Origin: Squalus acanthias
Lineage: Eukaryota
Length of the DNA: 64,000 bases
Direction of reading: 5' to 3'
Assembly (NCBI GenBank): GCA_030390025.1
Contig: JASTWF010000327.1
Coordinates: 434,001-498,000, forward strand
Shown here piece by piece: positions 1 through 57,974 of the stretch; positions within the stretch are counted from its first letter, which is position 1, and each line of letters begins with the position of its first letter. Below the pieces are notes generated by a model that saw only the letters and a program-made list of their open reading frames with translations, was not told the origin of the DNA and searched no databases. The translations under genes were made by a program, and so were the position numbers.

Positions 1-933
1 ACACCAAATTGGGAGTTAGAGTTAATACTGAAAGAAGACAAAATGCAAGAAGACATTAATAAATTTCAGAATGGGCGTGTAATTGGCAAATGAATTTCAC
101 TGTAGATCAGTGTGAGGTGGTGTGTTTTGGTGGGAAGAATAAGGAGGCCACTCACTACTTGGAGAAGGGGGTGAAATTGGGTTGCTTTGTGCCTCCCGCG
201 ATATTCAGCGGGAGGTTAGCGGCGGCGGTAGCCGGTAGCTCCCCGCGGCACTGCACCGCCAGCAATGACGTCATCGCCATGCGCAGCACCCCGGCTGCAA
301 CCTTGGGTTGTGACCCCTGACCTATCGCCGGACGATATGTCCGACAGGGTCAAGGGTCGTTCCTGCAGCCGCGGCGACGCCACTTAAAGGGCAGGTGTCG
401 GGCGGCAACTTTTTATTTTGGCCGACTGCCAGCACCTGCCCCCTTCCCCTTTCTTCTTCGGGGTGTCGGCCACGATCGCTCAGCCCGGCGCTCCTCTTGA
501 TCCGACACCCCGCTCCCCGGTGGTCCAGCAGGGCCCCGGTGTGAGCAGTGCTAGGCCCCTCCCCTTTAATCAGGGAGGGAGGTCTGCTATGACACGGTGC
601 TATGTGCCGACGGGCGTGGTGCTGTTGCACGAAGTGTGCGAAATTCACTGGTAGCGCCCCAAGAGGGAGGGCAGCGCTTCCAATAGCACCCCGCCTCCTG
701 CTTGGGGCGCTACCACTGAATTTAATGCGCAGGGGCGCTAACTTTTTTGGGGCGCTAAAATTAGCTCCGGCGACGTTAGCGACCCAAAGGGGGCGCCACC
801 AAATTTCTCCCCCTGAGAGTCTAAATGGGCTGGAGGAGCAGAGGAATCCAGGGATACAGATACACAAATCACTAAAAGTAGCGACACACGTTAATAAGGC
901 CATTAAAAAAAAAAGCACTGGGGTACATTCCTA
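1..933 (+). mobile_element. Degenerate CR1 LINE RT fragment, split by a Harbinger-type MITE at 167-813
   Basis: The flanks read as CR1 ORF2 (TKLG..., WQMNF...CEVVCFGGKN, ...HKSLKVA) and join across the insert; homologous to the CR1 copy at 11160-16435 (- strand). Confidence 0.8.
167..813. mobile_element. Non-autonomous PIF/Harbinger-type MITE (647 bp)
   Basis: Left TIR GGGGGTGAAATT (167-178); right end AATTTCTCCCCC (802-813), 11/12 match. The right subterminal gcgacccaaagggggcgccaccaaatttctccccc closely resembles the right end of the autonomous element (gcgccccaaatggggcgcgacctaatttctacccc). GC-rich, no credible ORF, TSD not clean (GAA/TGA). Confidence 0.8.
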
Positions 934-9854: not shown

Positions 9855-12480
9855 CTGCAGGGGTTGGATTCTGCTGTTATTGCTGTTGTTAATCACATCC
9901 AGGACTGAACCATGTCATTCTGACAGTTGGGATTTGTTTCTGCTGATGTTAATAACCCCTGTAACTGGGCTGGAGTTGATTTTCTGGATAGATGTTAAAT
10001 AAATCAGCTTTGCTTTGAACAAATTGTTGTAGATTTTTGTCTTTCCCGCCTGAGTGTTTAGCATCACCTGGCTGGAGCTCAGAAAGGACAATCTGGGGGA
10101 GGATCGTACGGCGGGAACAGAACTTCAGCCTGGACACAGTCCTTCAGGGCCACACTGAGAGGGGCAAACGGCACTTTGGTCTTTCTCGTCTCTCTTCACT
10201 GACAGCAAAGTCCCCGTGTGGGTTAATCTTGAGGCGTGTGAGAAACGTGTCCCAGCCGCTCTCTTCCATGGTTCAGAGCTCCTAGGCACGGAACAGAAGG
10301 CTCCTTTACAACTGTGTTTAGAGTCAGGAAGAACAACGGTGAATGCTGAAAACGTGCTGTCAAATCAGAGATTGGTGTCAAACTGCGATCTGTTCCTGAC
10401 TGAAAGTGAAACAGGTTTAAGTTTCCAGTCTAAAAATGACTGGTAATCATTCTATGAATATTTAACGTGTTTGTGTGACAGTCCTGAGTCTACCAGTTTA
10501 AGGCAGGTGTTAACCCATTTAAAATAAACCCGTTTAAAATAAATTGGTTAAAATCTGCATTAAAATAGCAGAGGGAGGAGTTCACAGGAGCCTGTTAACT
10601 GCTGGTACAATTATACAACAGACATTTGATCTCCAGATAAAGAAGGACCTGCAGCGTGTTTCCAGGAATTCCCTGTTTTATTGATGTGTGTGTGTTAGAC
10701 ACCAGGATAACTAAAAATACATGACCTGGAACATCCACAAGGATGAGATCTCGACAGTTTCTCTGGGATCACTCCCGCTGCGGAACTCCACCACTGACCC
10801 TGCTGAAGGTTGTCGGCTCAGGGAGTGGGGCCTCCAGGAGTGGACTGTAAGAAAGCTGGGCTTCAGTATCCTGACAAATATATGGTGAGGAACCAGAGGA
10901 ATCCTTACTGAGGAACCGTGTGGGCTCTTACCTGCCTGCGAAGGTCGAGGGGCGAATGATGCCTGACTCCCCGAAATTTGAACCCAGTTTATAACGAGAT
11001 AAATTGAGTTTACAGAAGAATAGGGACAAATATCACCCACAATTGAGGGAGACAAAAGCAGCCATTAGAGAAGCTCAGAGGGATTTGGAAATGAAGATGC
11101 TGCACAATTGTGGTAATATTAGTAAAATCTTTTCCAGCTACGTCAGGAGTCAGAGGACATAGTTACACAGAGTTACATCGAATTACAGAGTCTACAGCAC
11201 AGGAACAGGCCATTCGGCCCCACTGGTCAATGCCGGTGTTTCTGCTCCACATGAGCCTCCTCCCACCCTCGTGTGGAGCGAAGGGCCAGGCAGCAGAATG
11301 GATAGAAAGATGGCTACAAAATCCGATTAGCATAACCTTCGATTCCTTTCTCCCTCATGCGCTTATCTAGCTTCCCCTTAAATGCAGCTGTGTTATTCCC
11401 CTCGACTACTCCTTGTGGTAGCACGTTCCACATTCTTACCTCTCTTCGGGTAAAGAGGTTTCCCCTGAATTCCCCACTGGATTTATTAGTGACTTTCTTA
11501 TAATTATGACTTCTAGTTTTGGACTCCCACACAAGTGGAAACATTTTCCCGACATCCACCCTATAGAAACATTTCATAACCTTAAAGACCTCTATGAGGT
11601 CACCCATCAACCTTCTCTTTTTTAGACAAAAGAGCCCCAGCCTGTTCAGCCTCTCCTGATAAATATATCCTCTCAGTTCTAGGATCATCCTTGCAAATAC
11701 AATTTGCACCTTCTCCAGTGTCTCTATAATATATAATATTTTATAATATGGAGACCAGAACTGTGCACAGTACTCCAAGTGTGGTCTAACCAAGGTTCGA
11801 TACAAGTTTAACATAACTTCTCTGCTTTTCAATTCTATCCCTCTAGAAATGAGCCCCAGTCCATTGTTTGCTCCTTTTGTGGCCTCATTAACCTGCGTCG
11901 CTACTTTTAGTGATTTGTGTATCTGGACCCCGAGATCCCTTTGCTTCTCTACCCCATTTAGACTCCAAGGGGTAAAAATTCACTTGGTTGCGCCTCCCGT
12001 TAGCGCCTTAAGAGGGCGCTAATGGGGCGTTAAGCCGCTAACGCCCGGGCGCAGCGCTGTTTGCGCCGCTCGAGAACTTAACTTGAGATTGTGCGGCGGC
12101 GCTAAAACTTACCGCTGCGACCACCTGCGCGCGCAGATTGTGACGTCATTCCGTGGTGCAACGCCCTTGGGGCGCCCTGGAGCGGAAATTGAGTGGCGCC
12201 CCCTGCCTTACCGCCTGGCGCTTCCAACGACCGGAAGACTGGAACGTTATCAATCGGTGTGGGGCTGGGGGGGGCGCTATTTAAAGGGGGCCTCTTCCTG
12301 TCTTTTTCTGTGGTCGACATTTATGCACCACTCGTTCTGAGAGAGAGAGAGAGATTCGGAGAGAGAGCGAGAGAGACTTCTACATTGACTCAACGCTTTG
12401 TGAGGTAGTTTGGCCTAGTTCATCCTAACTTTGTTGCTACTTTAGTTGCTGCACCTCATTACTTTTCTGGCAAAGAGAAT

Positions 12481-13639
12481 ATGGGGGCTGCAATGATTGG
12501 GGGCGTCGTCCTGCTCCAGCTGAATCGGAGGATAGTGAGACGCAGACAGAGAGTGGCAATGATGGCCAGACGGAGGAGGGCCATCAGGCGCATGTACAGG
12601 AGAGCTTACCCTCCCAGGGTATATCGTGAACAGCTCTCCTACATCCATATGTCCGAGGAGCTGTGTTTGCGAAGGCTGCGATTCAGCAAAGGAGGTGGTC
12701 ACTGAGCTCTGCCACCTGCTGCAGCCAGATCTGCAGCCTCAGCTGAGGTCCAGGACGTCTCTGTCGGTGGCAGTGAAGGTCACAGTGGCTTTGAACTTCT
12801 ACGCCACTGGCTCATTCCAAGCTGCTGTTGGGGACCTCGCCAATATCTCCCACTTTGCGGTGCATCGCTGCATCCGGCAGGTCACCAATGCCCTCTTCAG
12901 AAGGAGACGAGACTTCATCTCTTTCCCTATGACCCCAGACAAGCAGCATGACCGTGCTATGGGCTTTGCGAGGGTAGCGGGCTTCCCCATGGTGCAGGGC
13001 GCCATTGACTGCACGCATGTGGCTTTGCGTGCTCCGCGAGAGAATGCAGAGGAATTCAGGAACAGAAAGGGGTTCCATTCCTTGAATGTGCAGTTGGTCT
13101 GTGACCACAGACAGGTGATTCTCGCTGTCAATGCCCACTATCCGGGCAGCTGCCACGATGCTTTCATCCTGCGCCAGACTACTGTGGCAGAACTTTTCGA
13201 GGCACCGCATCAGCCAGTTGGTTGGCTTCTGGGGGACAAGGGGTACGCATTGAGCACCTGGCTGATGACACCGCTCCGTACGCCAAACACCCCTGCTGAG
13301 CTGCGGTACCAGGAAAGCCATCAAGCAACCAGGAACATTATTGAGCGCACAATCGGCGTGCTGAAACAACGGTTCCGCTGTCTGGACCATTCCGGAGGAG
13401 CCCTGCAGTACTCGCCTGAGCAAGTTTCGAACTTCGTAGTCGTGTGCTGCATGTTGCACAACATGGCAATCCTCAGGACCCAGCCAATGCCACCAGGCCT
13501 TGTAGCACCACCAGAGGAGGAGGAGGAAGAGGAGGAACAGGACGAGGACGATGATCATCAGCACCAAGGCAGGAGGGCGGCCCACAATGGTCAAACTGCA
13601 AGGGCCGTCCGTCAACGACTAATAGCAAGCCGCTTCTAG
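12481..13639 (+). CDS. Harbinger DDE transposase (HARBI1-like, ~385 aa if repaired) with a single +1 frameshift at ~12688-12690
   Basis: ATG at 12481 gives ...LRRLRFS; an extra A shifts into EVVTELC. Catalytic motifs GAIDCTH, LLGDKGY and IIERTIG are present, as are RNRKGFHSLNVQLVCD and CCMLHN. Confidence 0.92.
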
Positions 13640-13898
13640 GGCCCCTGCCATTGCTACAAACACTAATCAACCCAGCACGCAACCCCTAAGCCGGCCAAGG
13701 CACCAATAATTCCAACCACCAGCCATGTATATTTTGAATACAGAAACTTATTTATTTTACAAACTCTGTGTGTGTCAATTCCTTATGACAAACTCATAGA
13801 AATAAACACAAAAAAACAGTCAATAACATAACTGGTTCTCACAACCTGGAGATAATGTCCAAAACACTAAACAAAAGTTGGACCATGAACCTCGGCCT

Positions 13899-15757
13899 TT
13901 AATAAAAAAATGACCAGCATTTTGGCACACCTCCTACTTTTTGCCCTTCGAGGGTGATCTCCTTCCCTTGCGCACTTCCCCCCCTTCTAACCCTACTGCT
14001 CCTCCGTAATGGGACCTCAGTGGCTGCAGCAAGGCTGGTGGAAGGCTGCTGCTCGTCAGACCCTGACACTGCAGATGCCCCTGAAGGACGGCCTCGACCA
14101 CTTCTGGGCCTGGAGGGCCCGGCTGCAGACTGCACCAACTCTGCATGGGCGGCAGCAGTCTGTCCTACAGGCGGTGGCAAGTGCAGTGGAGAAGTGACAG
14201 TGTTGGCAGCAGGAATGCTGTCATCGTGAGAGAGGACAGCAACTCCCTGCTCGCCCGACACACTGGCACTCCCACGGGGCAGCACTTCAGCATCCGGAGC
14301 AATTTGCCGGAGAACAGATTGCTGGCCTGCTGCGGCGCGGTGACAGCCCCGGGGACATGTGCACGAACCATCGAGGATGGCAGCAGTCAGTGCTCGCGTG
14401 GCCTCAATCTGAGTCTGCATGAGAGCAGTCTCAGATGGGTTCCTGGCAGCCAGTGACTGAATTGCAGCACTAAGCGTTAGTGTGGCATCCGCCTGTGCTA
14501 CAGCGAAGTGCTCCACACTCCTTGCCAGTGCCTCAATGCATTCGGGCACCCTTCCCACTGCACCCATGAGCTCAGTGTGCATGCCCACCGCCTGGCTGTT
14601 CATTTCTGCAATCAGCCGCTCCTCCTCTGCGTCCATTGCAGTAGGAGTGTCTGGCATACTCTCCCTCTGGGGAGAAGGCTCCCGTTCTTCCCTCCCCCCC
14701 CCATGGCGTTGCTGCAGCCCGCTGGGTCCTGGAGCTTCACCATCATCAGCCCCTTCCCCCCTGCTCCCCTCCGGGGAAGGCGTGTTCCCAGTGTGGCCAT
14801 GGGCTTCCTCGGGAGAGGGTGGCACTGATGCTCCGGCTTCCTCTTCCTCCTCAGCTGCAGCATCACTCCCAGTGGCAGCTTCAGGGCCCGTCTCCTCAGC
14901 TGGTGAATCACCATCTGAAAGCAGGGAGGTACAAGAGTGGCTTTAGCGTGAGGACAGGGTGGCAGTAAGGGAGGAATAAGTGCAGCGAGTTAGCAAGTTG
15001 GATTGAAAGTGTCAAAGGCTGGTATTGTGAGGGACAAGTGGAAGGACAGAGGACAAAAAGGTGATGACCTTACCATTGCTGTCCACAACGGGGTCGGCGT
15101 CCCCAGTGGCGACGGGACCGATCACCCGGCTTGCCACAATCCTGTGGACGCGCTCCTCAAGATCGCTGAGGGGTTGCAGCTGAAGCCGCCCTCCACCCGT
15201 CCGTTGCTGCTGTCTCCGATTATGAGCCAGCTTAGCCTGCAAGAAAAAGGACAGCATCTGAGTAAATATACAGCCATGGTCTTGCCTGATGTGCCTCCCA
15301 TAGGTGAATAGCCCTTACAATATGCAGCCATGGTCTTGCCTGATGTGCCTCCCATAGGTGAATAGCCCTTACTGTATGCAAAGTGTGGAATGTGTGTGTG
15401 TGTTTGATGAAAGGGCCATAGGTGTTGCATGAGTGTTGTGCATTGGGGTTTTAAGACCCTCTGGCCATAGAGTGAGGTTGAGATGGAGGGATGGAGAGGT
15501 ATTGAGAAAAAGCCACTCACCCTGACGACCCGAGTGAGGTCGTTGAACTTTTTGCGGCACTGAACATGGGTCCTGGGCACCATGCTCCTGGAGGAGACGC
15601 TCTGAGCCACCTCCCTCCACACTCTTCTGAACTCGCGTGGCAAAGGCCTCCTGCCACTCTCCGGGAACAGCATGCATCGTCTGCGCTCCACTGCGTCAAC
15701 CAGAGCATCCAAGGCCCGCTCGGTGAAGCGATGAGCGCGTTCTCTCACCCTCTCCAT
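13899..15757 (-). CDS. Harbinger Myb/SANT-like DNA-binding protein, 3 exons (15757-15521, 15236-15074, 14914-13899), ~471 aa, intact
   Basis: Exon 1 has RFTERALDALV...W.EVAQSVSS...RTHVQCRKKFNDL (trihelix). GT-AG junctions (GTGAGT, ttgcag, GTAAGG, tttcag) join in frame for 237+163+1016 nt. Exon 2 has RTGGG; exon 3 is acidic/low-complexity. Confidence 0.85.
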
Positions 15758-17039
15758 GCTTGGCAGCAAAATGGATTACAGGTCTCTCCAGGCTGAGATT
15801 CAAGGCTGCAATGAGCAGGGTGTGGCTGGGGAGCAAGTGGCCCCCCCCGCTTTAAGAAGTGTCCGGCGCCAGTGTGTCTGTGTTCCCTCGCTAACTGGCA
15901 GCAGCTGCGCTGCGCTCGTGCGCTGAGGTAGCGCCTCACTCCTAGGCCTTTGCGCCTTAAGAGAGGTGTGCAGCGCCTAATTTAGCGCTCCACTCACCTC
16001 CCGGGGCGGTAAAAGTGAAGTTTCCTGTCAGTGCCGATAATTAGCGCCAGGCGCTAATATTTGCGCTCGGATGATATTTGCGCCCCAAATGGGGCGCGAC
16101 CTAATTTCTACCCCCAAGTAATTTCCCAGTAGTGTGTGGCCTCTTTATTCTTCCTACCAAAACACACCACCTCACACTGATCTACATTGAAATTCATTTG
16201 CTAATTAAACACCCATTCTGCAAATTTATTCATGTCTTCTTCCATTTTCTCGCAGTCTTCCTCATTGTTATCTACACATCTCAATTTGGTGTCATCGCCG
16301 AATTTTGAAATTGTACTTCCGATTCCCAGTGCAAATCGTTTAGATAAATGATGAACAACAGTGATCCCAGCATCGATCCCTGTGGAACACCACTTCCCAC
16401 CTTTTGCCAGTCTGAGTAGCTACTCCCAACCCCTAAGTCTGTAAGATCTAGAAGATGACCCAGGTCAGGCCGTGTGGAGTGAAGGGCCAGGCAGCAGAAT
16501 GGATGGAAAGATGGCTACAAAACAGAAATCAGAGGGTTGGAGTTAAGGGAAGTTTGTTGTGATCTTTCCATCCATTCTGCTGCCTGGCCCTTGACTCCAC
16601 ACGGCCTGACCGTGGTCATCTTGTAGACCGTACATACTGCAGACACAGTGCACCAATGGTGGAGGGGGTGGATATTGAGTCCTGTGGCAGGGCGCTGATG
16701 AAGTGGATTTCTCTGTCCGTGAGTTTTGAGGCATTGCTAGTGGCATTTTTCACCTCTTTCCACCTTTAACATAAAATCTTATTGCCAGTTTATTAAAGCC
16801 TCTCGGGTAGGTCACAAAAAAAATTCAGGCCTCATAAGTTTCCCTCAGAATGACAGGCCTGAACCCGAGTTAGAAAACATTTAGTAATTAAACCAGACTG
16901 GGCGGGGCCTGAGGTGTGAGTTAATAACGGAAAATTAGTGGCCAGCGTACTTCACACCAGGGCTGAGGACCCGGGCACTCGGGTTTCTGTATCATTTATT
17001 GATTAATTTAGTTTATTGCCCAATCTTAATCAGACAGGC

Positions 17040-25291: not shown

Positions 25292-28200
25292 GCTCACCCC
25301 AACTCCTCTTTCACCCCAACTCTCCAACCCCCCTCACCCCAACTCCTCTTTCACCCCTACTCTCCAACCCCCCTCACCCCAACTCCTCTTTCACCCCTAC
25401 TCTCCAACCCCCCTCACCCCAACTCCTCTTTCACCCCTACTCTCCAACCCCCCTCACCCCAACTCCTCTTTCACCCCTACTCTCCAACCCCCCTCACCCC
25501 AACTCCTCTTTCACCCCAACTCTCCAACCCCCCTCACCCCAACTCCTCTTTCACCCCAACTCTCCAACCCCCCTCACCCCAACTCCTCTTTCACCCCTAC
25601 TCTCCAACCCGCCTCTCCCCAACTCCTCTTTCACCCCTACTCTCCAACCCGCCTCTCCCCAACTCCTCTTTCACCCCTACTCTCCAACCCCCTCACCCCA
25701 ACTCCTCTTTCACCCCTACTCTCCAACCCCCCTCACCCCAACTCCTCTTTCACCCCTACTCTCCAACCCCCCTCACCCCAACTCCTCTTTCACCCCTACT
25801 CTCCAACCCCCCTCTCCCCAACTCCTCTTTCACCCCTACTCTCCAACCCCCCTCACCCCAACTCCTCTTTCACCCCTACTCTCCAACCCCCCTCACCCCA
25901 ACTCCTCTTTCACCCCTACTCTCCAACCCCCCTCACCCTAACTCCTCTTTCACCCCTACTCTCCAACCCCCCTCACCCCAACTCCTCTTTCACCCCTACT
26001 CTCCAACCCCCTCACCCCAACTCCTCTTTCACCCCTACTCTCCAACCCCCTCACCCCAACTCCTCTTTCACCCCTACTCTCCAACCCCCTCACCCCAACT
26101 CCTCTTTCACCCCTACTCTCCAACCCCCTTCACCCCAACTCCTCTTTCACCCCTACTCTCCAACACCCCTCACCCCAACTCCTCTTTCACCCCTACTCTC
26201 CAACCCCCCTCACCCCAACTCCTCTTCACCCCTACTCTCCAACCCCCCTCACCCCAACTCCTCTTTCACCCCTAGTCTCCAACCCCCTCACCCCAACTCC
26301 TCTTTCACCCCTACTCTCCAACCCCCTCACCCCAACTCCTCTTTCACCCCTACTCTCCAACCCCCCTCACCCCAACTCCTCTTTCACCCCTACTCTCCAA
26401 CCCCCTCACCCCAACTCCTCTTTCACCCCAACTCTCCAACCCCCTCACCCCAACTCCTCTTTCACCCCTACTCTCCAACCCCCCTCACCCCAACTCCTCT
26501 TTCACCCCTACTCTCCAACCCCCCTCACCCCAACTCCTCTTTCACCCCTACTCTCCAACCCCCCTCACCCCAACTCCTCTTTCACCCCTACTCTCCAACC
26601 CCCTCACCCCAACTCCTCTTTCACCCCTACTCTCCAACCCCCCTCACCCCAACTCCTCTTTCACCCCTACTCTCCAACCCCCCTCACCCCAACTCCTCTT
26701 TCACCCCTACTCTCCAACCCCCCTCACCCCAACTCCTCTTTCACCCCTACTCTCCAACCCCCCTCACCCCAACTCCTCTTTCACCCCTACTCTCCAACCC
26801 CCTCACCCCAACTCCTCTTTCACCCCTACTCTCCAACCCCCCTCACCCTAACTCCTCTTTCACCCCTACTCTCCAACCCCCCTCACCCCAACTCCTCTTT
26901 CACCCCTACTCTCCAACCCCCTCACCCCAACTCCTCTTTCACCCCTACTCTCCAACCCCCTCACCCCAACTCCTCTTTCACCCCTACTCTCCAACCCCCC
27001 TCACCCCAACTCCTCTTTCACCCCTACTCTCCAACCCCCCTCACCCCAACTCCTCTTTCACCCCTACTCTCCAACCCCCTCACCCCAACTCCTCTTTCAC
27101 CCCTACTCTCCAACCCCCCTCACCCCAACTCCTCTTTCACCCCTACTCTCCAACCCCCTCACCCCAACTCCTCTTTCACCCCTACTCTCCAACCCCCTCA
27201 CCCCAACTCCTCTTTCACCCCTACTCTCCAACCCCCTCACCCCAACTCCTCTTTCACCCCTACTCTCCAACCCCCCTCACCCCAACTCCTCTTTCACCCC
27301 TACTCTCCAACCCCCTCACCCCAACTCCTCTTTCACCCCTACTCTCCAACCCCCTCACCCCAACTCCTCTTTCACCCCTACTCTCCAACCCCCTCACCCC
27401 AACTCCTCTTTCACCCTACTCTCCAACCCCTCTCCCCAACTCCTCTTTCACCCCTACTCTCCAACCCCCTCACCCCAACTCCTCTTTCACCCCTACTCTC
27501 CAACCCCCTCACCCCAACTTCTCTTTCACCCCTACTCTCCAACCCCCCTCACCCCAACTCCTCTTTCACCCCTACTCTCCAACCCCCCTCACCCCAACTC
27601 CTCTTTCACCCCTACTCTCCAACCCCCTCACCCCAACTCCTCTTTCACCCCTACTCTCCAACCCCCCTCACCCCAACTCCTCTTTCACCCCTACTCTCCA
27701 ACCCCCCTCACCCCAACTCCTCTTTCACCCCTACTCTCCAACCCCCCTCACCCTAACTCCTCTTTCACCCCTACTCTCCAACCCCCCTCACCCCAACTCC
27801 TCTTTCACCCCTACTCTCCAACCCCCCTCACCCCAACTCCTCTTTCACCCCTACTCTCCAACCCCCTCACCCCAACTCCTCTTTCACCCCTACTCTCCAA
27901 CCCCCCTCACCCCAACTCCTCTTTCACCCCTACTCTCCAACCCCCCTCACCCCAACTCCTCTTTCACCCCTACTCTCCAACACCCCTCACCCCAACTCCT
28001 CTTTCACCCCTACTCTCCAACCCCCTCACCCCAACTCCTCTTCACCCCTACTCTCCAACCCCCCTCACCCCAACTCCTCTTTCACCCCTACTCTCCAACC
28101 CCCTCACCCCAACTCCTCTTTCACCCCTACTCTCCAACCCCCTCACCCCAACTCCTCTTTCACCCCTACTCTCCAACCCCCCTCACCCCAACTCCTCTTT

Positions 28201-30465
28201 CACCCCTACTCTCCAACCCCCTCACCCCAACTCCTCTTTCACCCCTACTCTCAACCCCCTCACCCCAACTCCTCTTTCACCCCTACTCTCCAACCCCCCT
28301 CACCCCAACTCCTCTTTCACCCCAACTCTCCAACCCCCCTCACCCCAACTCCTCTTTCACCCCTACTCTCCAACCCCCCTCACCCCAACTCCTCTTTCAC
28401 CCCTACTCTCCAACCCCCTCACCCCAACTCCTCTTTCACCCCTACTCTCCAACCCCCCTCACCCCAACTCCTCTTTCACCCCTACTCTCCAACCCCCCTC
28501 ACCCCAACTCCTCTTTCACCCCTACTCTCCAACCCCCCTCACCCCAACTCCTCTTTCACCCCTACTCTCCAACCCCCCTCACCCCAACTCCTCTTTCACC
28601 CCTACTCTCCAACCCCCCTCACCCCAACTCCTCTTTCACCCCTACTCTCCAACCCCCCTCACCCAACTCCTCTTTCACCCCTACTCTCCAACCCCCCTCA
28701 CCCCAACTCCTCTTTCACCCCTACTCTCCAACCCCCTCACCCCAACTCCTCTTTCACCCCTACTCTCCAACCCCCTCACCCCAACTCCTCTTTCACCCCT
28801 ACTCTCCAACCCCCTCACCCCAACTCATCTTTCACCCCTACTCTCCAACCCCCTTCACCCCAACTCCTCTTTCACCCCTACTCTCCAAACCCCTCACCCC
28901 AACTCCTCTTTCACCCCTACTCTCCAACCCCCCTCACCCCAACTCCTCTTTCACCCCTACTCTCCAACCCCTCACCCCAACTCCTCTTTCACCCCAACTC
29001 TCCAACCCCCTCACCCCAACTCCTCTTTCACCCCTACTCTCCAACCCCCCTCACCCCAACTCCTCTTTCACCCCTACTCTCCAACCCCCTCACCCCAACT
29101 CCTCTTTCACCCCTACTCTCCAACCCCCCTCACCCCAACTCCTCTTTCACCCCACTCTCCAACCCCCTCACCCCAACTCCTCTTTCACCCCTACTCTCCA
29201 ACCCCCTCACCCCAACTCCTCTTTCACCCCTACTCTCCAACCCCCTCACCCCAACTCCTCTTTCACCCCTACTCTCCAACCCCCTCACCCCAACTCCTCT
29301 TTCACCCCACTCTCCAACCCCTCACCCCAACTCCTCTTTCACCCCAACTCTCTAACCCCCTCACCCCAACTCCTCTTTCACCCCTACTCTCCAACCCCTC
29401 ACCCCAACTCCTCTTTCACCCCTACTCTCCAACCCCCTCACCCCAACTCCTCTTTCACCCCTACTCTCCAACCCCGCTCACCCCAACTCCTCTTTCACCC
29501 CTACTCTCCAACCCCCCTCACCCCAACTCCTCTTTCACCCCTACTCTCCAACCCCCTCACCCCAACTCCTCTTTCACCCCTACTCTCCAACCCCCTCACC
29601 CCAACTCCTCTTTCACCCCTACTCTCCAACCCCCCTCACCCCAACTCCTCTTTCACCCCTACTCTCCAACCCCCCTCACCCCAACTCCTCTTTCACCCCT
29701 ACTCTCCAACCCCCTCACCCCAACTCCTCTTTCACCCCTACTCTCCAACCCCCTCACCCCAACTCCTCTTTCACCCCTACTCTCCAACCCCCCTCACCCC
29801 AACTCCTCTTTCACCCCTACTCTCCAACCCCCTCACCCCAACTCCTCTTTCACCCCTACTCTCCAACCCCCTCACCCCAACTCCTCTTTCACCCCTACTC
29901 TCCAACCCCCCTCACCCCAACTCCTCTTTCACCCCTACTCTCCAACCCCCCTCACCCCAACTCCTCTTTCACCCCTACTCTCCAACCCCCTCACCCCAAC
30001 TCCTCTTTCACCCCTACTCTCCAACCCCCCTCACCCCAACTCCTCTTTCACCCCTACTCTACAACCCCCCTCACCCCAACTCCTCTTTCACCCCTACTCT
30101 CCAAACCCCTCACCCCAACTCCTCTTTCACCCCTACTCTACAACCCCCCTCACCCCAACTCCTCTTTCACCCCTACTCTCCAAACCCCCTCACCCCAACT
30201 CCTCTTTCACCCCTACTCTCCAACCCCCCTCACCTCAACTCCTCTTTCACCCCTACTCTCCAACCCCCCTCACCCCAACTCCTCTTTCACCCCTACTCTA
30301 CAACCCCCCTCACCCCAACTCCTCTTTCACCCCTACTCTCCAAACCCCCTCACCCCAACTCCTCTTTCACCCCTTCTCTCCAACCCCCGTCACCCCAACT
30401 CCTCTTTCACCCCAACTCCTCTTTCACCCCTACTCTCCAACCCCCTCACCTCAACTCTCCAACCA
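25292..30465. repeat. 5.2-kb C-rich minisatellite, 39-40-bp unit (~130 copies)
   Basis: Unit ccctcaccccaactcctctttcacccctactctccaaccc, with a variable C-run length. Confidence 0.98.
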
Positions 30466-32424: not shown

Positions 32425-33156
32425 GGTGCGGGTGTCCTTGTGTCTCTCCAGGTTGGATGATCAGTTGAAGCCTCGTCCACACACAGAACACGTGTACGGT
32501 TTCTCCCCGCTGTGAACGGTGCGATGTTTTTTCAGGCTGTGTAACTGGTTAAAGCTCTTTCCACAGTCAGTGCACTGGAACACTCTCACTCGGGTGTGTG
32601 TGTCTCGGTGCTTTTCCAGTCACACTGATGTTTGAAATCTTTTCCCACAGACAGAACAAACAAACATTTCTCCTTCCACATTCAAAGGCCGATGATATTC
32701 AGGTCCTGATGAATGGAGTGACTCTGCCAGATCTTGACGTGATGTTTGGTTTGAGTTTCCCATCTGCAAATCCTCCCCTTCTAATACCCTGTAAAAGGAG
32801 TTTAGAAAAGTCATCACTGTAAGTACAGGATAGAAATAAAGAACAGACAATTCTAGTTTCTATGGAACATTCTTTCCTCTCTTGTTCCCCGAAAGCTATA
32901 AATCCCCGTCCCACACACTCTCCCTCCTCCCTGTGCTGAAATCCAAACCCATCGCACCATCTCCAAATTTTTTCCTCTGCTCCCAGTTTTCTTCATCCTC
33001 TGAAGGTGCTGACTCTGGCTGGGTTCAGTTCTACACTCACTGGTTCCCCTCCCTCTCCTCCCGTGAAGGTGCTGACTGAATGGATTCAGTTCTACACTCA
33101 CTGGTTCCCCACCTTATGAACTGCTTCGGGCACTTTGTTTACCACACACACAGCAT

Positions 33157-33410
33157 AAGAACATAAGAATATAAGAAATAGGAGCAGGAGTAGACCAATC
33201 GGCCCCTCGAGCCTGCTCCGCCATTCAATGAGATCATGGCTGATCTGATCCAACCTCAACTCTAAAGAACACAAGAAGTAGGAGCAGGACCCGGCCACTC
33301 GGCCCCTGGGCCCGCTCCGCCACCCACAGGGCCTCGACCGATCTGAACTCAAACTCATGTCCAATTTCCAGCCCGCTCCCCGTAACCCCTGATTCCCTTT
33401 ACTTCTAGCA
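33157..33410 (-). mobile_element. CR1 3' UTR fragment
   Basis: cataagaa tail repeats; matches 42450-42730 and 63225-63500. Confidence 0.75.
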
Positions 33411-33584
33411 GACGCACATTAATCTGATGGGAGATCACTGACACACGAGCAGCCAGCGGTGTGGAGCCTCCCGAGAGTCCGGCCCCTTTCCAGCCAGTAT
33501 TTACAGGAGCTGGGGCACGGAAAACAGTCTAATTGAAATTAGTGATATATTTATTCACACAAACCAAGCCCCAAAATAATAAAT

Positions 33585-34318
33585 AATTTCTCCTTTATTT
33601 ACAGACGCTCCCTGACCAGTCACCATTTCTCCTCCATTTACAGACGCTCCCTGACCAGTCACCATTTCTCCTTTATTTACAGACGCTCCCTGACCAGTCA
33701 CCATTTCTCCTCCATTTACAGACGCTCCCTGACCAGTCACCATTTCTCCTCCATTTACAGACGTTCCCTGACCAGTCTCCATATCTCCTCCATTTACAGA
33801 CGCTCCCTGACCAGTCACCATTTCTCCTCCATTTACAGACGCTCCCTGACCAGTCACCATTTCTCCTCCATTTACAGACGTTCCCTGACCAGTCACCATT
33901 TCTCCTTTAGTTACAGACACTCCCTGACCAGTCTCCATTTCTCCTCCATTTACAGACGCTCCCTGACCAGTCACCATTTCTCCTTTAGTTACAGACACTC
34001 CCTGACCAGTCTCCATTTCTCCTCCATTTACAGACGCTCCCTGACCAGTCACCATTTCTCCTTTAGTTACAGACACTCCCTGACCAGTCTCCATTTCTCC
34101 TCCATTTACAGACGCTCCCTGACCAGTCACCATTTCTCCTTTAGTTACAGACACTCCCTGACCAGTCTCCATTTCTCCTCCATTTACAGACGCTCCCTGA
34201 CCAGTCACCATTTCGCCTCCATTTACAGACGCACCCTGACCAGTCACCATTTCTCCTCCATTTACAGACGCTCCCTGACCAGTCACCATTTCTCCTCCAT
34301 TTACAGACGCTCCCTGAC
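33585..34318. repeat. 39-bp minisatellite (~19 copies) with 78-bp higher-order alternation
   Basis: Unit catttctcctccatttacagacgctccctgaccagtcac alternates with a ...ctttagttacagacactcc... variant in the middle of the array. Confidence 0.95.
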
Positions 34319-34384
34319 TCGCTGGGGATTTCCCAGCACTTCCTGGTTGTCCCGGAGATTGTGTCTTAAACTGGCGGGTAGTTG

Positions 34385-35230
34385 TGGGGAGGCGGATAAT
34401 GTTGAGTGTTTTAATAATGGGGCCTGGGGCCGCACTCGGGGTGTGTGCAGCCCGCGTCCCCCCGGGGTTTATTAACCCGCTCCCTGAGCTCTCTCACCTG
34501 ATGTGTCAGCGGCTGCTGCCAAGGTCCGCGCATGCTCAGCTCACCTTCTGCTGTTCAGGTTCAAAGGTCAAGCCCCGCCCCTCACACACTCCGATTGGTT
34601 GGAGGACCCGCCGCCCGCTCGGTCCTCCAGTCCCGCCCTTCTCTTCCTATTGGTCCGGAGCTCCCGTCAATCACCCGGGCAGTGTGAGCTGAGCATGCGC
34701 GGACACATCAGGTGAGAGAGCTCAGGGATAACAACAGAAAACGCTGGAAAAACTCAGCAGGCCAGACAACATCCGTGGAGAGAGAAAGAGAGTTAACGTT
34801 TCAGGTTGAAACCCTTCGTCGGAACGTTCCGACGAAGGGTTTCGACCTGAAACGTTAACTCTCTTTCTCTCTCCACGGATGTTGTCTCGCCTGCTGAGTT
34901 TTTCCAGCGTTTTCTGTTGTTATTTCGGATTTCCAGCATCCGCAGTATTTTGCTATCGAGAGAGCTCAGGGAGCGGGTTAATAAACCCCGGGGGGACGCG
35001 GGCTGCACACACCCCGAGTGCGGCCCCCGGCCCCATTATTAAAACACCCCACATTATCCGCTTCACAAACACCAGGGGTGGGCCTCAGGCCCCGAACAAG
35101 AGCCTCCGGGCCGGGCGTTTGCCCCGAGCGGGGCGGCAGCTGCGGGGCTTTCTCCCGGTGACAGGCCCGGGTTAACGGCCGCCATCTTGACAGGCTCAGG
35201 GGGCAGCAGGGCGCATGCGCGGCCCCCTTG
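34385..35230. promoter_or_regulatory. Bidirectional CpG-island promoter between ZNF genes D and E, flanked by inverted repeats
   Basis: CCAAT/GC-box core at 34570-34680; inverted arms 34390-34508 and 34702-35061, each with CAG|GTGAGA; YY1-like site at ~35180. Confidence 0.7.
34729..34957. mobile_element. Palindromic Penelope-derived mini-element
   Basis: 15-bp TSD GAGAGAGCTCAGGGA (34714-34728 / 34958-34972); near-perfect ~196-bp palindrome centred at 34825/34826; hammerhead-like core with CCGACGA. Confidence 0.85.
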
Positions 35231-35669
35231 GCCAGGAACCAGGAGGAGAGAATCTTGGCAATTTCTATCCTGGACTCACAGTCATGGCTTTTGGAAACTT
35301 CTTTTACAGGCTGTGAGAAGCGCAGCATTTACACACTGCAAACTCTGACCAAACAACAACAACTTACCTTTATATAGCGCCTTTAAAATGTCACAGTAGT
35401 GCAGTCAGACAATAATCGACACACATACTTTGTTTGTGGTCCAGTGCACTGACACAAAGTTCCTTCACAACTGTAACAATTTTATTGCGGTTGCTGTGAA
35501 GGCTGCGCTCACTCTGCTCGTACACCTGGTCTCCAAAGGATGTTAACAGGACTAATGCTGCCGAGCTCAGCTCTTTTTGATCAGAAAATATCAGCTGTTT
35601 AGTCTCGCCAGGAAATGCACGAAAGAGGCAGCAGTGCTCATTGGCTGCCCAGGAAAGTCCTATTTAGAT

Positions 35670-35918
35670 TAAACTCCTTCACCCAGAGAGTGCTGAGAAT
35701 GTGGAACTTGCTGCCACAGGGAGTAGTTGAGGCGAAGAGCAGGGATGCATTTCAGGGGAAGCTGGATAAACACATGGGAGAAAGGAATAGAAGGAGATGC
35801 TGATAGGGTGAGATGAAGAGAGATGGGAGGAGGCTCGTGTGGAGCATAAACACCGCATGGACCAGTTGGGCTGATTGGCCTGTTTCTGTGCTGTACAATC
35901 TATGTTATTCGATGTAAT
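35670..35918 (+). mobile_element. CR1 3' fragment
   Basis: FTQRVLRMWNLLPQ...KLDKHM followed by a CR1 3' UTR. Confidence 0.75.
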
Positions 35919-36290
35919 AAGAGAGGAAAGAATGTTCCATAGAAACTGGAATTATCTGTTCTGCATTTTAATCCTCAACTTACAGTGATGTCTTTTGTAA
36001 ACTGCTTTTACAGGGAATATCATCAGCCTTTGAATGTGGAAGGAGAAATGTTTGCCTGTTCTGTCTGTGGGAAAAGATTTCAAACATCAGTGTGACTGGA
36101 AAAGCACCGAGACACACACACCCGAGTGAGAGTGTTCCAGTGCACTGACTGTGGAAAGAGCTTTAACCAGTTACACAGCCTGAAAAAACATCGCACCATT
36201 CACAGCGGGGAGAAACCGTACACGTATTCTGTGTGTGGACGAGGCTTCAACTGATCATCCAACCTGGAGAGACACAAGGACACCCGCACC

Positions 36291-52139: not shown

Positions 52140-52945
52140 AATGTGAAGTTATCCACTTTGGTAGAAAAAGCAGAAAGGCAGAGTGTTTCCTAAATGGTGA
52201 AAGATTGGGGAATGCAGATGCTCAAAGGGTCCTGGGTGTCCTTGTACATGAGCCACTGAAAGTGAATGTGCAGGTGCAGCAAGCCATTAGGAAGGCAAAT
52301 GGTATGCTGGCCTTCATTGCAAGAGGATTTGAGTACAGGAGTAAAGAAGTCTTACTCCAATTATATAGGGCCTTGGTGAGACCACACCTGGAGTACTGTG
52401 TACAATTTTGGTCTCCTTACCTAAGGAAGGATATACTTGCCATAGAGGGAGTGCAACGAAGGTTCACGAGATTGATTCCTGGGATGGCGGGACTGCCGTA
52501 TGAGAAGAGATTGAGTAAACTAGGCCTGTATTCTCCTGAATTCAGAAGAATGAGAGGGGATCGCATTGAAGCATACAAAATGATTACAGGGCTTGATGGG
52601 GTGGATGCTGGGAGAATGTTTCCCCTGGCTGGAGAGTCTAGAACCAGGGGCCACAGCCTCAGGATAAAGGGTAGGCCATTCAGGACTGAGATGAGAAGAA
52701 ATTTGTTCACACAGAGGGTGGTGAATCTTTGGAATTCTCTACCCCAGAGGGCTGTGGAGGCTCAGTCATTGGGTATATTCAAAACAGAAGTCGATAGATT
52801 TCTGACTAGTAAGGGCATCAAGGGATATGGCGATAGGGCCGGTGAATGGAATTGAGGCAGAAGATCAGCCATGATCTCATTGAATGGCGGAGCAGGCTCG
52901 AAAGGCCGAATGGCCTACTCCTGCTCCTATTTCTTATGTTCTAAT
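52140..52945 (+). mobile_element. CR1 3' fragment
   Basis: ORF 52205-52855 is an RT C-terminus, followed by a CR1 3' UTR. Confidence 0.9.
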
Positions 52946-53009
52946 CCCCATGTACAGTCCCAAGGTTGGAATCCCCCATATACAGTCCCAGAGTTGGAAT
53001 CCATGCTTT

Positions 53010-54925
53010 CGCCCCTCGAGCCTGCTCCACCATTCAATAAGATCATGGCTGATCATCGACCACAACTCCACTTTCCTGCCCGATCTCCATATCCCTTGAT
53101 TCCCCGAGAGTGCAAAAATCTATCTATCTTAGCCTTGAATATACTGAAAGACTAGCATTCACAGCCCTCTGGGGCAGAGAATTCCAAACATTCACAACCC
53201 TCTGAGTGAAGAAATTCCTCCTCATCTCAGTCTTAAATGGCCGACCCCTTATCCTGAGACTATACCCCCTAGTTCTAGACACTCCAGCCAGGGGAAACAA
53301 CCTCGCAGCATCTACCCTGTCAATCCCCTTCAGAATCCTGTATGTTTCAATGAGATCACCTCTCATTCTTCTGAACTCCAGAGAGTATAGGCCCATTCTA
53401 CACAATCTCTTATCATAGGACAGCCCTCTCATCCCAGGAATCAATCTAGTGAACCTTCATTGCACTGCCTCCAAGGCAAGTATATCCTTCCTCAGATAAG
53501 GAGGCCAAAACTGTGCACAGTACTCCAGGTGTGATCTCACCAAGGCCCTGTACAATTGTAGCAAGACTTCATTACTCTTATACTCCAACCCCCTTGCAAT
53601 AAAGGCCAACATGCCATTTGCCTTCCTTATTGCTTGCTGTACCTGCATGCTAGCTTTCTGTGTTTCTTGCACGAGGACACCCAGATCTCTCTGAACACCA
53701 ACATTTGAAAGTTTCTCACCATTTAAAAAATATTCCGTTTTTCTATTCTTCCTACCAAAGTGAATAACCTCACATTTCCCTACATTATACTCCATCTGCC
53801 ACCTTACTGCCCACTCACTTAGTCTATCTATATCCCTTTGCAGACTCTGTGTTCTCCTCACAGCTTACTGTCCCACCTAGCTTTGTATCATCAGCAAACT
53901 TGGATACATTACACTCGGTCCCTTCATCTAGGTCATTAATATAGATTGTAAATAGCTGAGGCCCCAACACTGATCCTTGCGGCACCCCACTAGTTACAGC
54001 CTGCCAACCTGAAAAAGATCCGTTTATCCCTACGCTCTGTTTTCTGTCCGTTAACCAATCCTCTATCATGCTACTATATTACCCCCATGCCCATGAGCCC
54101 TAATCTTGTGTAATAACCTTTTATGTGGCACCTTATCGAATGCCTTTTGGAAATCCAAATATACTACATCCACTGACTCCCCTTTATCTACCCTGCTAAT
54201 TACATTCTCAAAAAACTCTAATAAATTTGTCAAACACGATTTCCCTTTCATAAAACCATGTTGACTCTGCCTAATCATGTTATGATTTTCTAAGTGACTT
54301 GATACCACTTCCTTAACAATGGATTCCAGCATTTTCCTGACGACTGATGTCAGGCTAACTGGCCTGTAGTTCCCTGTTTTTTCCCTCCCTCCTTTCTTGA
54401 ATAGCGGTGTTACATTTGCGACCTTCCAATCCGCTGGGACCATTCCAGAATCCAGGGAATTTTGGAAGATCAAAACCAATGCCTCCACTATCTCTCCAGC
54501 CACCTCTTTTAGAACCCTAGGATGTAGGCCGTCAGGTCCAGGGGATTTGTTGGCTTTTAGTCCCATTAGTTTCTCTAGTACTTTTTGTCTACTTATATGA
54601 ATTACGTTAAGTTCCCCACCCTCATTAGACCCTTGGTTCCCCACCATTTTTGGTATGCTTTTTGTGTCTTCTACTGTGAAGACAGATACAAAATATTTGT
54701 TTAACATTTCTGCTATGATCACTCTGCCCCAGAGGATCCTTTACTATGAGATTGCTAATTAACCCTGTCTCATTACACAATACAAGATCTAAAATAGCCT
54801 GTTCCCTGGTTGGTTCCTTGACATATTGTTCTCAGAAACTGTCCCGAATGCATTCCATGGACTCGTCCTCCAGACTACCTTTGCCAATTTGATTTGTCCA
54901 GTCTATCTGAAGATTAAAGTCCCCC
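53010..54925 (-). mobile_element. CR1 fragments (RT, plus a short EN piece)
   Basis: ORFs 54066-54722 (KSPGPDG, NYRPVSLTS, LDFQKAFD), 53824-54069, 53457-53861 and 53124-53444. Confidence 0.9.
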
Positions 54926-54929
54926 AACC

Positions 54930-57300
54930 TTGTACATCCTCTTCATCTATTTTTATCCTATGCAATATTACTACTGCCTCCTCCTTTACTGCTACATTGG
55001 CAGCATCCTCTTCTCTCGTGAAGACTGAAGTAAAGTACTCATTTAGTACCTCAGCCATTGCCCTCTGCCTCCACAAGATGATGTTTTTGGTCCCGAATCG
55101 GCCCCAGCCTTCCTTTGACTACCCTTTTACTATTTATGTGTTTATAAAAGACTTTTGGGTTCCCTTTTATGTTAGCCGCTAATCTATTCTCATACTCTCT
55201 CTTTGCCCCTCTTATTCCTTTTTTATATCTCCTCTGTACTTTCTATATTCAGCTTGGTTTTCTACTATCTTATTAACCTTAGAATTGTCATAAGCCTCCT
55301 TTTCCTGTTGTATTTTAACCTCTATATCTTTAGTCATCCAGGGAGCTCTAGCTTTGGATGCCCTTCCTTTCCCCCTCATGGCAATGTGTCTACTCTGTAC
55401 ACAAACCATCTCCTCTTTGAAGCCCTCCCATTGTTCAATTACTGTTTTGCCTACCAACTTTTGATTCCAATCCACCTGGGCCAGATCCCTTTTCAACTCA
55501 CTGAAGTTAGCCCTCCTCCAGTTAAATATTTTTACACTTGTCCTTTTCCATAACTATTTTTAAGCTGACGACATTCTGATCACTGTTCCCCAAATGCTCT
55601 TCCACTGAAATATGCTCCACTTGCTCCACTTCATTCCCCAGAACTAGATCCAGCTCTGCTTCCTTCCTCGTTGGGCTGGAAACAGTGTTCAAGAAAATTC
55701 TCTTGTACGCATTTCAGGAATTCCTCCCCCTCTTTGCCCTTCAGACTGATGCTATCCCAGTCTATATTAGGATAATTGAAGTCTCCCATTATCACTACTC
55801 TGCAGTTCCTGTATCTTTCTGTAATTTGCCTGCAAATTTGCTCCATTATCTCCTTCCCATTATTTGGTGGCCTACAGTATGCACCCTGTAGCGTAATAGC
55901 TCCTCTACTGTTCCTTAATTCAAACCAAATAGATTCTGTCTTTCACCCCCTCAACTACATCATCCCTCTCCAGTGCTAGAATAGTTTCATTGATCAGTAT
56001 TACCACCGCCTCCTTTTTTTCCCCTTCCCTCTCTTTCCTGAATACCTTGTAGCCAGAAATATTAAGTTCCCAATCCTCCCCTTCTTTGAGCCAGGTCTCT
56101 GTTATTCCCACTATTTCATTGTCCCATGTGGTGACTTGTGCCTGTGGCTCACCAACCTTATTTCTCACGCTCCGTGCATTTACACACATGCACTCCAAAC
56201 CCATCTTAGACTGCTTCGCATTTGCCCCCCCTGTCTGATCCCTCCCATTTCTGAACTATTCTTTAATCTAGTGCTATTTGCCTCTCCATGTCCTCTGTGC
56301 ACCTTGTTTCTCCTCTCTGATGTTTCATCCTGGAGCACACCCCCTGCCAAATTAGTTTAAACCCTCCCCCACAGCACCAGTTAACCTTCCCGTGAGGGCG
56401 TTGGTCCCAGCTCTGTTGAGGTGCAACCCGTCCACCTTGGACAGGTCCCTCCTGCCCCAGAACTGGTCCCAATGCCCCAGGAATCTGAAGTCCTCCTTCC
56501 TGCTTCATTTCTCCAGCCATATGTTAACCTGTCTTATCCGACTATTCCTATACTCACTAGTGCATGGCACTGGGAGTAATCCAGAGATTGCTATTTTTGA
56601 GGTCCTGCTCTTTAATTTCCTCCAGAGTTCCTGAAACACTGACTGCAGGACCACAACCCTTTTCTTTCCTGTGTCATTGGTTCCCATATGGACTACAACT
56701 CCTAGCTGTTCAACTCCCCCCCCCATAAAATGTTCTGCACCCTCTCCGTGATGTCCTTTACCCTGGCACCAGGGAGACAACACACCGTGCGGGACTCACA
56801 TCCGGGGTTGCAGAAACACCTGTCTAATCCCCTGACTATTGAATCCCCGATGACCACTGCATTTCTACACTTTGCTGTGCCCCCCTGTGCAGTCAATTGC
56901 CCCACAGTGCAGTGGATGTGCTCCAGACTGCACTCCCCCGAGGTGTTGTCACCCTCACCATTGGTCAGCACTGAAAACCGGTTTGAGAGTGCCACACTCC
57001 CGGAGGATTCCTGCACTGCCTGCCTCTTCCTACCCTGCCGGACGGCCACCCAGTTACAATTCCCATGAACTCTCCGTAGCTGCGGGGTGACCACCTCCTG
57101 CAACGTGGACTCCGGGAAATTCTCAGCCTCCCGTCTGCCCTGCAGTGACTCCAGCCGCTCCTCAAGCTCAGAAACCCTGAGCTCGAGTTCCAGCCACTGG
57201 AGGCACTTCCTGCACCCGCAGTTATCCGGGACACGTGAAGCGTCCTGAAAGTTCCCACATGGCACAGGAATTGCAGCAATCGGTCCCATCATTTCGCTTA
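54930..57300 (-). mobile_element. CR1 5' portion: ORF1 (zinc-finger/coiled-coil plus SGNH esterase) and ORF2 endonuclease, degenerate
   Basis: C..C...CRKC..LELRVSELE, IGDSIVRG, CLPGARV, HMGTND; then NARS, ITETW, GDFNYP. Confidence 0.85.
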
Positions 57301-57469
57301 AAAGTCTATCTACCTGAGCTATAGATATGACGTTAGGTTAGTATCCCCTTATCCCTACCATTCAATCAGTGACTGGCCCTTTGCCAGGCCCGCTGACTGT
57401 GGCCCCTCTCCCAGATTCCAGCCCCAGCTCTGTGCTGACTGAGCTGCTCTCACCTGGGGACAGCGCGTC

Positions 57470-57965
57470 ACAATCGGCCCCAGCGCACCTGAGCTGGTCA
57501 CCAGGCCCCGCCCCCTTGCTGCGCCGCCATTGGTAGGAGGACCCACCGCCCGCTCGGTCCTCCAGCCCCGCCTCCTCTTCCTATTGGTCCGAGCTCCCGT
57601 CAGTCAGGCCGCTCCCCGCGGTCACGTGCTCCAGTTCACTCCGCCCCCTCGCCACCCCGAGTGATGGACGCGGCTGAATCCGCTCCATTCGGTGTCCGGG
57701 GAGCTCCTGCCCGACTCTCGGGTTTGTATTTTACTTTATTCTCTCTCTCTTCGCCCCCTGTACCATCTCCCCGCCCAACCGCCAGCTAACTCGGTGCAGC
57801 AAACTCACTTTCCGTCGGTGACTCGGCCTCAACGGCCGTCCGTCCGCCTTCCCCAGGAGCCCCCGCGCGGTTGCCCCGGTGACCCCAGCCCAGCGCGCAG
57901 GCGCAGCAGCGGCCGGATTGTCGGCCTGAGTTCTGCCTCCTGAGCATGCGCGGCGCCCAGCCGGT
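57470..57965. promoter_or_regulatory. CpG-island promoter module with no ZNF exon identified nearby
   Basis: Same attgg...ggaggaccc...ccccgcc...cctattggtcc...gctcccgtca module as 5300, 34590 and 43260; GCATGCGC at ~57944. Confidence 0.55.
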
Positions 57966-57974
57966 GACCTCATC

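Follow-up and report, generated by a model that had tools for sequence, protein, structure and literature searches.

NuwaII, a member of the PHIS superfamily, is described as carrying two ORFs, one for a DDE transposase and one for a Myb/SANT protein, at an average length of about 4.7 kb, with TIRs of 13-46 bp that start with GG and a 3-bp target (the triplet TNA) inside a C...G context; the 12 species listed for it include no cartilaginous fish (Han et al. 2015, PMC4482050). Harbinger3_DR from zebrafish is also a vertebrate Harbinger with two proteins, non-autonomous derivatives and an extended target preference, in its case for AAACACCWGGTCTTT, a palindrome centred on CWG, and has been shown to transpose (PMC3016246, PMC2836001, PMC9392472) after it was rebuilt from a consensus (PMC2836001, PMC3016246). 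A third system, Harbinger-Snek of the sea kraits, likewise combines high copy number, two genes and short non-autonomous derivatives, and horizontal transfer is a demonstrated feature of it (PMC8437027). As for cartilaginous fish, Harbingers were reported as absent from the elephant shark and the study of other members of the group was recommended (PMC9179366), and the genome papers on the whale shark and the grey reef shark list Harbinger as a class only (PMC8455134, PMC12498223). To describe one family in these animals and define its target motif would fill a small gap.

Our analysis concerns a stretch of 64,000 nucleotides from Squalus acanthias, hereafter the window, and in it an element of 4.1 kb (11969..16114; Table 1). 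We put the probability at roughly 0.7 that this is a full-length, defective member of an abundant PIF/Harbinger family (PHIS, NuwaII-like) of elasmobranchs, lying within an older LINE in a zinc-finger cluster. It is a structurally complete cut-and-paste Harbinger transposon with more than one private defect. The left TIR GGGGTAAAAATT (11969-11980) and the right TIR GGGGTAGAAATT (16114-16103) are identical at 11 of 12 bases and CAA flanks both. Among 538,200 end pairs around the genes, only 11969/16114 unites an inverted match of at least 11/12 with an exact 3-bp direct repeat, the naive expectation for such a pair being 0.02. In addition, a scan of the window for GGG-starting inverted pairs (12-bp TIRs, with the tandem array 25293-30418 masked) gave 57 pairs, of which only the focal element has an exact 3-bp duplication and only this element and a small relative at 167-813 are of Harbinger type. 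A TIR register with five Gs was dropped here, as the focal element would then lack a duplication. Among the family contigs, loose ends that start before 11969 were found four times in run X17 and five times in run X19.

Table 1. Features of the focal element, its insertion site and a small relative in the window
Feature	Position	Strand	Remarks
Related non-autonomous Harbinger-type element, 647 bp	167..813	+	12-bp TIRs, 11/12
Host LINE, part downstream of insertion	11314..11965	-	
Left target-site duplication CAA	11966..11968	.	context C-CAA-G, AGACTC directly before
Left TIR, 12 bp	11969..11980	+	11/12 match to right TIR
Left subterminal region, CpG-rich	11981..12270	.	GCGCTAA/TTAGCGC motifs at 12000, 12016, 12099
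Harbinger transposase gene, single exon	12481..13639	+	385 aa on read-through; Pfam DDE_Tnp_4
AAA run with one extra A	12688..12690	+	shifts the frame by +1 behind residue 69; stop codon 12703-12705
His124, private to focal copy	12851..12853	+	Gln in family and in 43/45 aligned homologues
Acidic residues D176, D252, E288	13007..13345	+	13007-13009, 13235-13237, 13343-13345
Convergent poly(A)-type motifs	13751..13806		TTTATT at 13751 (minus-strand gene), AATAAA at 13801 (plus); motifs alone
Myb-like gene, exon 3	13899..14914	-	parts of 14816-14007 align with five homologues in a single frame
C7 run	13978..13984	-	one-base-shorter form in family contigs
Myb-like gene, exon 2	15074..15236	-	
54-bp tandem duplication within intron 1	15265..15372	.	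copies 98% identical
Myb-like gene, exon 1	15521..15757	-	Pfam Myb_DNA-bind_5
Right TIR	16103..16114	-	11/12 match to left TIR
Right target-site duplication CAA	16115..16117	.	
Host LINE, part upstream of insertion	16118..16436	-	reverse-transcriptase region

The original prediction of a two-gene PIF/Harbinger element was borne out in its TIRs and perfect CAA duplication, in the DDE transposase and Myb gene between them and in the poly(A)-type motifs on both strands. Indeed, the features of the PHIS or PIF/Harbinger superfamily in the broad sense are all present: short TIRs with G or A as their first base (12 bp, 11/12), a DDE_Tnp_4-type DDE transposase, though frameshifted in the focal copy, a second ORF with a Myb/SANT domain (PF13873, 74 relatives, a homology-backed gene model) and a 3-bp duplication, CAA, which is known from one insertion, since no clean duplication flanks the small relative and a LINE reference is 3 bases shorter than the focal empty site with a single CAA. 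By its ORFs, its TIRs starting with GG, its length and a target readable as 3 bp inside C...G the element appears NuwaII-like, an assignment by features; its TIRs of 12 bp fall short of the NuwaII range and its triplet differs from TNA (PMC4482050). CAA had been called atypical, and it is neither the TWA of the strict PIF/Harbinger group (Han et al. 2015) nor, read as CAA/TTG, the CWG of NuwaI. This stands only in part, as the focal site C-CAA-G, equally readable as a 5-bp CCAAG, is one base off the NuwaII target C-TNA-G as described (PMC4482050), and so is the site of the small relative, C-TCA-T, which makes two sites.

The surroundings of the insertion consist of an older LINE inside a duplicating zinc-finger gene cluster. 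We take this LINE to be of CR1 type by its motifs; its paralogue at 4030-4383 matches RVT_1 (E 5.8e-14), the focal-side piece 16284-16514 does so weakly (E 0.027), and at E 0.01 the LINE pieces on either side had no Pfam family. Some contigs run from one LINE flank directly into the other, bypassing the element, e.g. 11965 to 16122 in X2, X17 and X19, so empty paralogues exist.

For a survey of the family, contigs from four public runs (X1, X2, X17 and X19) were placed on the element; the depths given below are summed contig depths and not copy numbers. Family contigs cover 30 of 30 bins of the element in all four runs, and the element belongs to a multi-copy, abundant family. Contigs at least 99% alike to it number 7,100 of 39,049 in X1 and 11,610 of 58,255 in X2, thousands in each. 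There is nevertheless an appreciable chance, short of even, that the family is old and extinct and that its copies are similar only through the slow change of shark genomes. This would account for the contigs less than 95% alike, taken as the majority and counted against youth (19,906/39,049 in X1; 27,943/58,255 in X2), and for the 17 listed runs, under seven organism labels, that hold at least half of the sampled window words, which fits a spread before the species split. It accounts poorly for the thousands of contigs at the 99% level, for a CpG o/e that is 1.01 at the left end but 0.46 over the window and 0.43 in the LINE alongside, and for the two host LINE copies being about 15% different whereas the longest close family contigs match the element at about 98-99%. 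These three observations mark relative youth, not present activity. Searches with the right-end pattern returned 0 matches in viral contigs; among metagenome contigs it matched only L001, which was dropped because the match extends over 24 bases only.

Within this relatively young family, the focal copy is marked by its defects. Its transposase matches DDE_Tnp_4 (PF13359, E 1.5e-38), and a comparison with solved structures gave no match (3 hits, best E 0.017). D176, D252 and E288, which we take to be the catalytic triad, are present as the prediction of an intact D-D-E had it, and D226 (13157-13159) is likewise there. As also predicted, the gene is split over two frames that join at AAA 12688-12690 (tblastn of P0001 and P0009), so the focal copy, as assembled, cannot make transposase. 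In family contigs of three of the four runs, the extra A is missing from 94-100% of the local depth (126,496/133,851 in X2, 165.9/165.9 in X17 and 90.8/96.5 in X19). Most depth thus lacks it, and the usual transposase frame of the family is open at this point; in X1 the shorter run accounts for only 717 of 1,968, and the remainder may be the three-A form or contig ends. The claim that the gene is broken only by one extra A was not confirmed, since His124 is private as well: each of the four runs has G at base 12853, giving the Gln of the family, throughout its depth (100%). Further private substitutions against the family contigs lie at 12057, 12452, 13784 and 14304.

The predicted Myb gene is made up of three exons with GT-AG borders (15757-15521, 15236-15074 and 14914-13899) in an open frame of 471 aa, with a match to Myb_DNA-bind_5 (PF13873, E 9.7e-09). 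Exon 1 as query found 1 of 158 in a word search and 74 relatives in a full search; blastp hits were obtained for 70 Myb homologues, of which 45 span the exon 1/2 junction and 8 extend beyond residue 230. With exon 3 alone as query, 8,000 candidates were screened and none was a homologue. None of the 15 contig joints shown, out of 126, matches a predicted Myb intron, and three contigs cross splice sites unspliced, two at the exon 1 donor (X17 no. 16, 15351-15808; X19 no. 23, 15429-15806) and one at the exon 3 acceptor (X19 no. 22, 14709-14947). These were counted neither for nor against splicing, because X17 and X19, which are RNA by guess only, may contain DNA and passive copies are many. The description of a fully in-frame three-exon gene is correct for the exons and the open frame, but the last ~27 residues of the window's protein are probably read in a shifted frame. 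In detail, the C7 run at 13978-13984 is probably a second +1 slip altering the Myb tail; a form one base shorter occurs in all four runs and would stop the protein at 13936-13934 with a basic tail. The second slip is likely, but the shorter form makes up only 2% (X1) and 28% (X2) of the depth in the two DNA runs, the other two giving 98% and 41%, so it may not be the majority state of the family.

An autonomous element has both ORFs intact, and here, as assembled, the slip at 12688-12690, His124 and the probable slip at 13978-13984 interrupt or alter them. Errors in homopolymers are familiar: a +1 indel in such a run is a typical error of long reads, although a run of three bases is short for it. 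We consider it unlikely that the locus is intact and autonomous, with both slips as assembly errors and His124 as a tolerated substitution. Both indels are indeed +1 in homopolymer runs and the extra A is usually missing in the family; that at most 0.90 of the sampled window words occur in any one run fits errors in the window and absence of this copy from the samples alike. However, the A run is only three bases long, part of the depth at 12688 lacks the shorter run, 12853 is a substitution at a position where 43 of 45 homologues carry Gln, and the other private substitutions argue that the copy has aged. The focal element is an ordinary young copy and not one base from working. "One base from autonomous" was an overstatement, given the private His124 at a near-invariant Gln and the probable second slip in the Myb tail. 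With its intact ends, the copy would at best be mobile in trans.

A mechanism in which a Myb protein and a transposase act together is established for Harbinger3_DR and Ping/Pong. By analogy, the Myb protein of this family would bind the GC-rich ends of the element, help the DDE transposase to enter the nucleus and direct it to the TIRs; the transposase would then cut the element out and reinsert it with a 3-bp stagger. GCGCTAA/TTAGCGC motifs, putative Myb binding sites, occur nine times in the window, six of them in the ends of the focal element and two in those of the small relative, with none in the interior.

The small relative sits in another copy of the same host LINE, at the same LINE position and in the orientation opposite to that of the focal element, without a clean duplication (GAA vs TGA). 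This second insertion points to an extended target preference, AGACTC-NNN in a C-NNN-G context, which would be the preferred insertion site of the family; the motif was chosen after the fact from three events. Extended preferences of this sort are an established feature of the superfamily (PMC2836001, PMC3016246), and the tentative half-site AGACTC beside CAA, TCA or TTT differs from the palindromic target described for Harbinger3_DR (PMC3016246, PMC2836001, PMC9392472). The third event is a consensus of five loose ends in X19 (agreement only 0.65), which finishes with AGACTC followed by three bases, and the LINE position that it resembles is another one, found in the window at 53833; the consensus from X17 (agreement 0.57) has no AGACTC. 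That both elements are one insertion, duplicated with the zinc-finger cluster and free of any target preference, is most improbable: they do share the duplicating cluster and the LINE junction, but their orientations relative to the LINE are opposite, their ends are just 78% alike over 65 bases, and the third AGACTC flank resembles another LINE position.

We describe this element as a member of the known PIF/Harbinger superfamily; no new mechanism or activity follows from this single copy. It seems doubtful that the family is still transposing in sharks, with intact natural copies (possibly the focal locus, if its slips are assembly errors), an extended target AGACTC-TNA unlike that of Harbinger3_DR and up to 99-100% local identity between species. 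If true, this would be a vertebrate Harbinger that is active in nature and prefers certain sites, which could usefully be set against the reconstructed Harbinger3_DR and might serve for gene delivery. As a candidate for reconstruction the focal element is not unusual, since this has already been done from a consensus for Harbinger3_DR.

The transposase homologues come almost entirely from sharks and rays (120 listed matches), the best of those listed, a shark protein, having 66% identity over the whole 316-aa query. Their name, 'putative nuclease HARBI1', could hint at two host genes domesticated as a pair, like HARBI1/NAIF1, a reading we dismiss in view of the TIRs, the TSD, the LINE insertion, the empty paralogues, the frameshift and the many copies seen in the contig coverage. 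Among the matches listed, none of these proteins (from Pristiophorus, Heptranchias, Narcine, Mobula and others) is of the same family as the focal transposase. They share its N-terminal layout and acidic tail, and some of them may be domesticated genes or decayed copies.

The element is a real and well-preserved, but not intact, Harbinger copy. The TIRs and perfect CAA duplication of the original prediction were confirmed: the TIRs measure 12 bp with one mismatch, and CAA stands on either side. Of the 538,200 end pairs that were tested, no other showed this layout of TIRs and triplet (0.02 expected naively), and of the window's 57 inverted pairs starting with GGG, only the focal element had an exact triplet duplication. 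The left boundary is supported by family contigs whose loose ends start at 11969 (n=4 in X17 and n=5 in X19, two of four public sequencing runs aligned to the element). Six of the window's nine GCGCTAA/TTAGCGC motifs lie in the focal element's ends and two in a small relative, while none of the nine was found in the focal element's interior; they are plausible as putative Myb binding sites. One X1 contig links the right end (16114) to the left end (11969) with a lone T between them at a depth of 45, representing either two copies in head-to-tail tandem or a circle closed by joining the ends.

Features of the Harbinger copy and of its small relative
Feature	Positions	Strand	Basis
Focal Harbinger element	11969-16114		TIRs and flanking duplication
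Transposase gene	12481-13639	+	start at 12481 coincides with the homologues' starts
Myb-like gene	15757-15521, 15236-15074, 14914-13899	-	predicted GT-AG exons
Small non-autonomous relative (647 bp)	167-813		TIRs match the focal ones

The transposase matches DDE_Tnp_4 (E 1.5e-38), and among the 120 matches listed its homologues come nearly throughout from sharks and rays, which makes an elasmobranch the most likely host. It had been described as broken only by one extra A, with the D-D-E triad intact. Homologue alignments follow frame 1 as far as about 12690 and frame 2 starting at about 12689, which places a +1 slip in the assembled AAA at 12688-12690, and D176, D226, D252 and E288 are all present; the slip and the triad (D176, D252, E288) therefore stand, whereas the word "only" does not, as His124 is private as well. 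In a comparison with 45 homologues of 340–445 aa drawn from the 120, 6 of the 124 conserved columns hold a non-consensus residue in the focal transposase, whose His124 and Gln277 occur in none of the 45. His124 is private to the focal copy because base 12853 reads G (giving Gln) in all depth of all four runs; Gln277 does not figure in the 40 variant rows listed out of 270. Contigs lack the extra A over 94.5% (X2), 100% (X17) and 94% (X19) of the depth, whereas in X1, where the depth is very small, the share is only 36%; the family's usual transposase frame is open at 12688. In a shark database gene model, P0006, a Myb start is fused to a Harbinger transposase, probably because neighbouring elements were wrongly joined during annotation.

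The three predicted exons of the Myb gene yield an open frame of 471 aa, matching Myb_DNA-bind_5 (E 9.7e-09). Seventy of 75 homologues compared gave a blastp match, with 45 of the 70 spanning the exon 1/2 junction and 8 extending past residue 230; five homologues align in a single frame over parts of exon 3 that lie within 14816-14007. The claim of a fully in-frame three-exon gene thus holds for the open frame, but not securely for the tail after the RRSSR motif. There the window protein runs on for 35 residues, and its first stop, at 13901-13899, already lies in the AT-rich gap. By contrast, the three homologues aligning to the tail end 10–21 residues past the motif. A C run shorter by one at 13978 would give a stop at 13936-13934, after a basic tail, and accounts for 5,830 of 260,602 depth in X1, 130,451 of 461,177 in X2, 319.5 of 325.6 in X17 and 141 of 341 in X19, shares which contigs ending inside the run may lower. 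A second slip in this C run is rather probable in the focal copy as assembled; the Myb domain lies at the opposite end of the protein.

The element is present in 20 of 24 listed runs. In 17 of them, half or more of the 424 sampled words were present; these 17 carry seven organism labels and come from 11 studies. The best share of words is 0.90, in a run that may be the assembled sample; if the missing 10% are private, the focal copy carries roughly 14 or more private differences. It has aged a little. Contigs cover all 30 bins of the element in each of the four aligned runs (two DNA of organism A, two presumed RNA of A and B). In X1, 7,100 of 39,049 aligned contigs are at least 99% alike and 19,906 less than 95%; the corresponding figures for X2 are 11,610 and 27,943 of 58,255. 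This spread indicates a multi-copy family with both young and older members.

According to PMC9392472 and PMC2836001, relatives require both proteins, the Myb protein binding the ends and carrying the transposase into the nucleus. By homology, the focal Myb protein would likewise bind the element ends and bring the transposase into the nucleus. The focal copy as assembled yields no transposase; it could move in trans, since its ends are kept intact.

The flanks of the focal element are two halves of one minus-strand LINE, presumably CR1 from its motifs, whose reading frames join across the site; a paralogue at 4030-4383 matches RVT_1 (E 5.8e-14). Contigs without the element connect both flanks, which shows that there are empty paralogues. 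Even after one CAA is taken out, the focal site exceeds a LINE reference by 3 bases, and a paralogue has TTAT in place of the window's CAAGTAA (16115-16135). The extra letters duplicate nearby sequence, as in the repair of a break, and are perhaps, speculatively, the trace of an earlier excision at this site. At 16436-16638 and 11270-11321 there are a fold-back of LINE sequence, whose 86-nt arms are 88% complementary, and a direct repeat of 52 nt (96%) bracketing the LINE and the inserted element.

The small relative, whose ends are 78% alike to the focal ones over 65 bases, sits in another copy of the host LINE (about 85% identical). Its junction is at the focal element's LINE position, 3 bases from AGACTC, in opposite orientation and without a clean target-site duplication; it has an internal inverted repeat at 641-723. 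The X19 loose-end consensus (n=5, agreement only 0.65) has AGACTC and three bases at its end and is similar to another LINE position, seen at 53833; AGACTC was not found in the X17 loose-end consensus. Counting both strands, the window holds 21 occurrences of the motif, which was picked post hoc; the chance expectation is about 3e-4 per insertion. A single base separates C|TNA|G, the target of NuwaII (PMC4482050), from the focal C|CAA|G and likewise from the small element's C|TCA|T. Extended target preference is an established trait, with targets of 9 bp for plant elements and 15 bp for vertebrate ones (PMC2836001), and PMC3016246 gives AAACACCWGGTCTTT for Harbinger3_DR.

No description of the present shark family was found in the literature covered, to which most subscription journals and the repeat databases did not belong, and its novelty is hence unproven. 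Harbingers are listed for whale shark (PMC8455134) and grey reef shark (PMC12498223) and were not found in elephant shark (PMC9179366).

Overall, the window forms a C2H2 zinc-finger cluster with 84-bp arrays, rich in LINE fragments. A tandem array at 25293-30418 consists of about 130 copies of a C-rich 40-bp unit (97% match) with extreme strand skew. Long inverted repeats at 34419-35034, 32430-36285 and 52368-58433 are apparently inverted duplications within the cluster.
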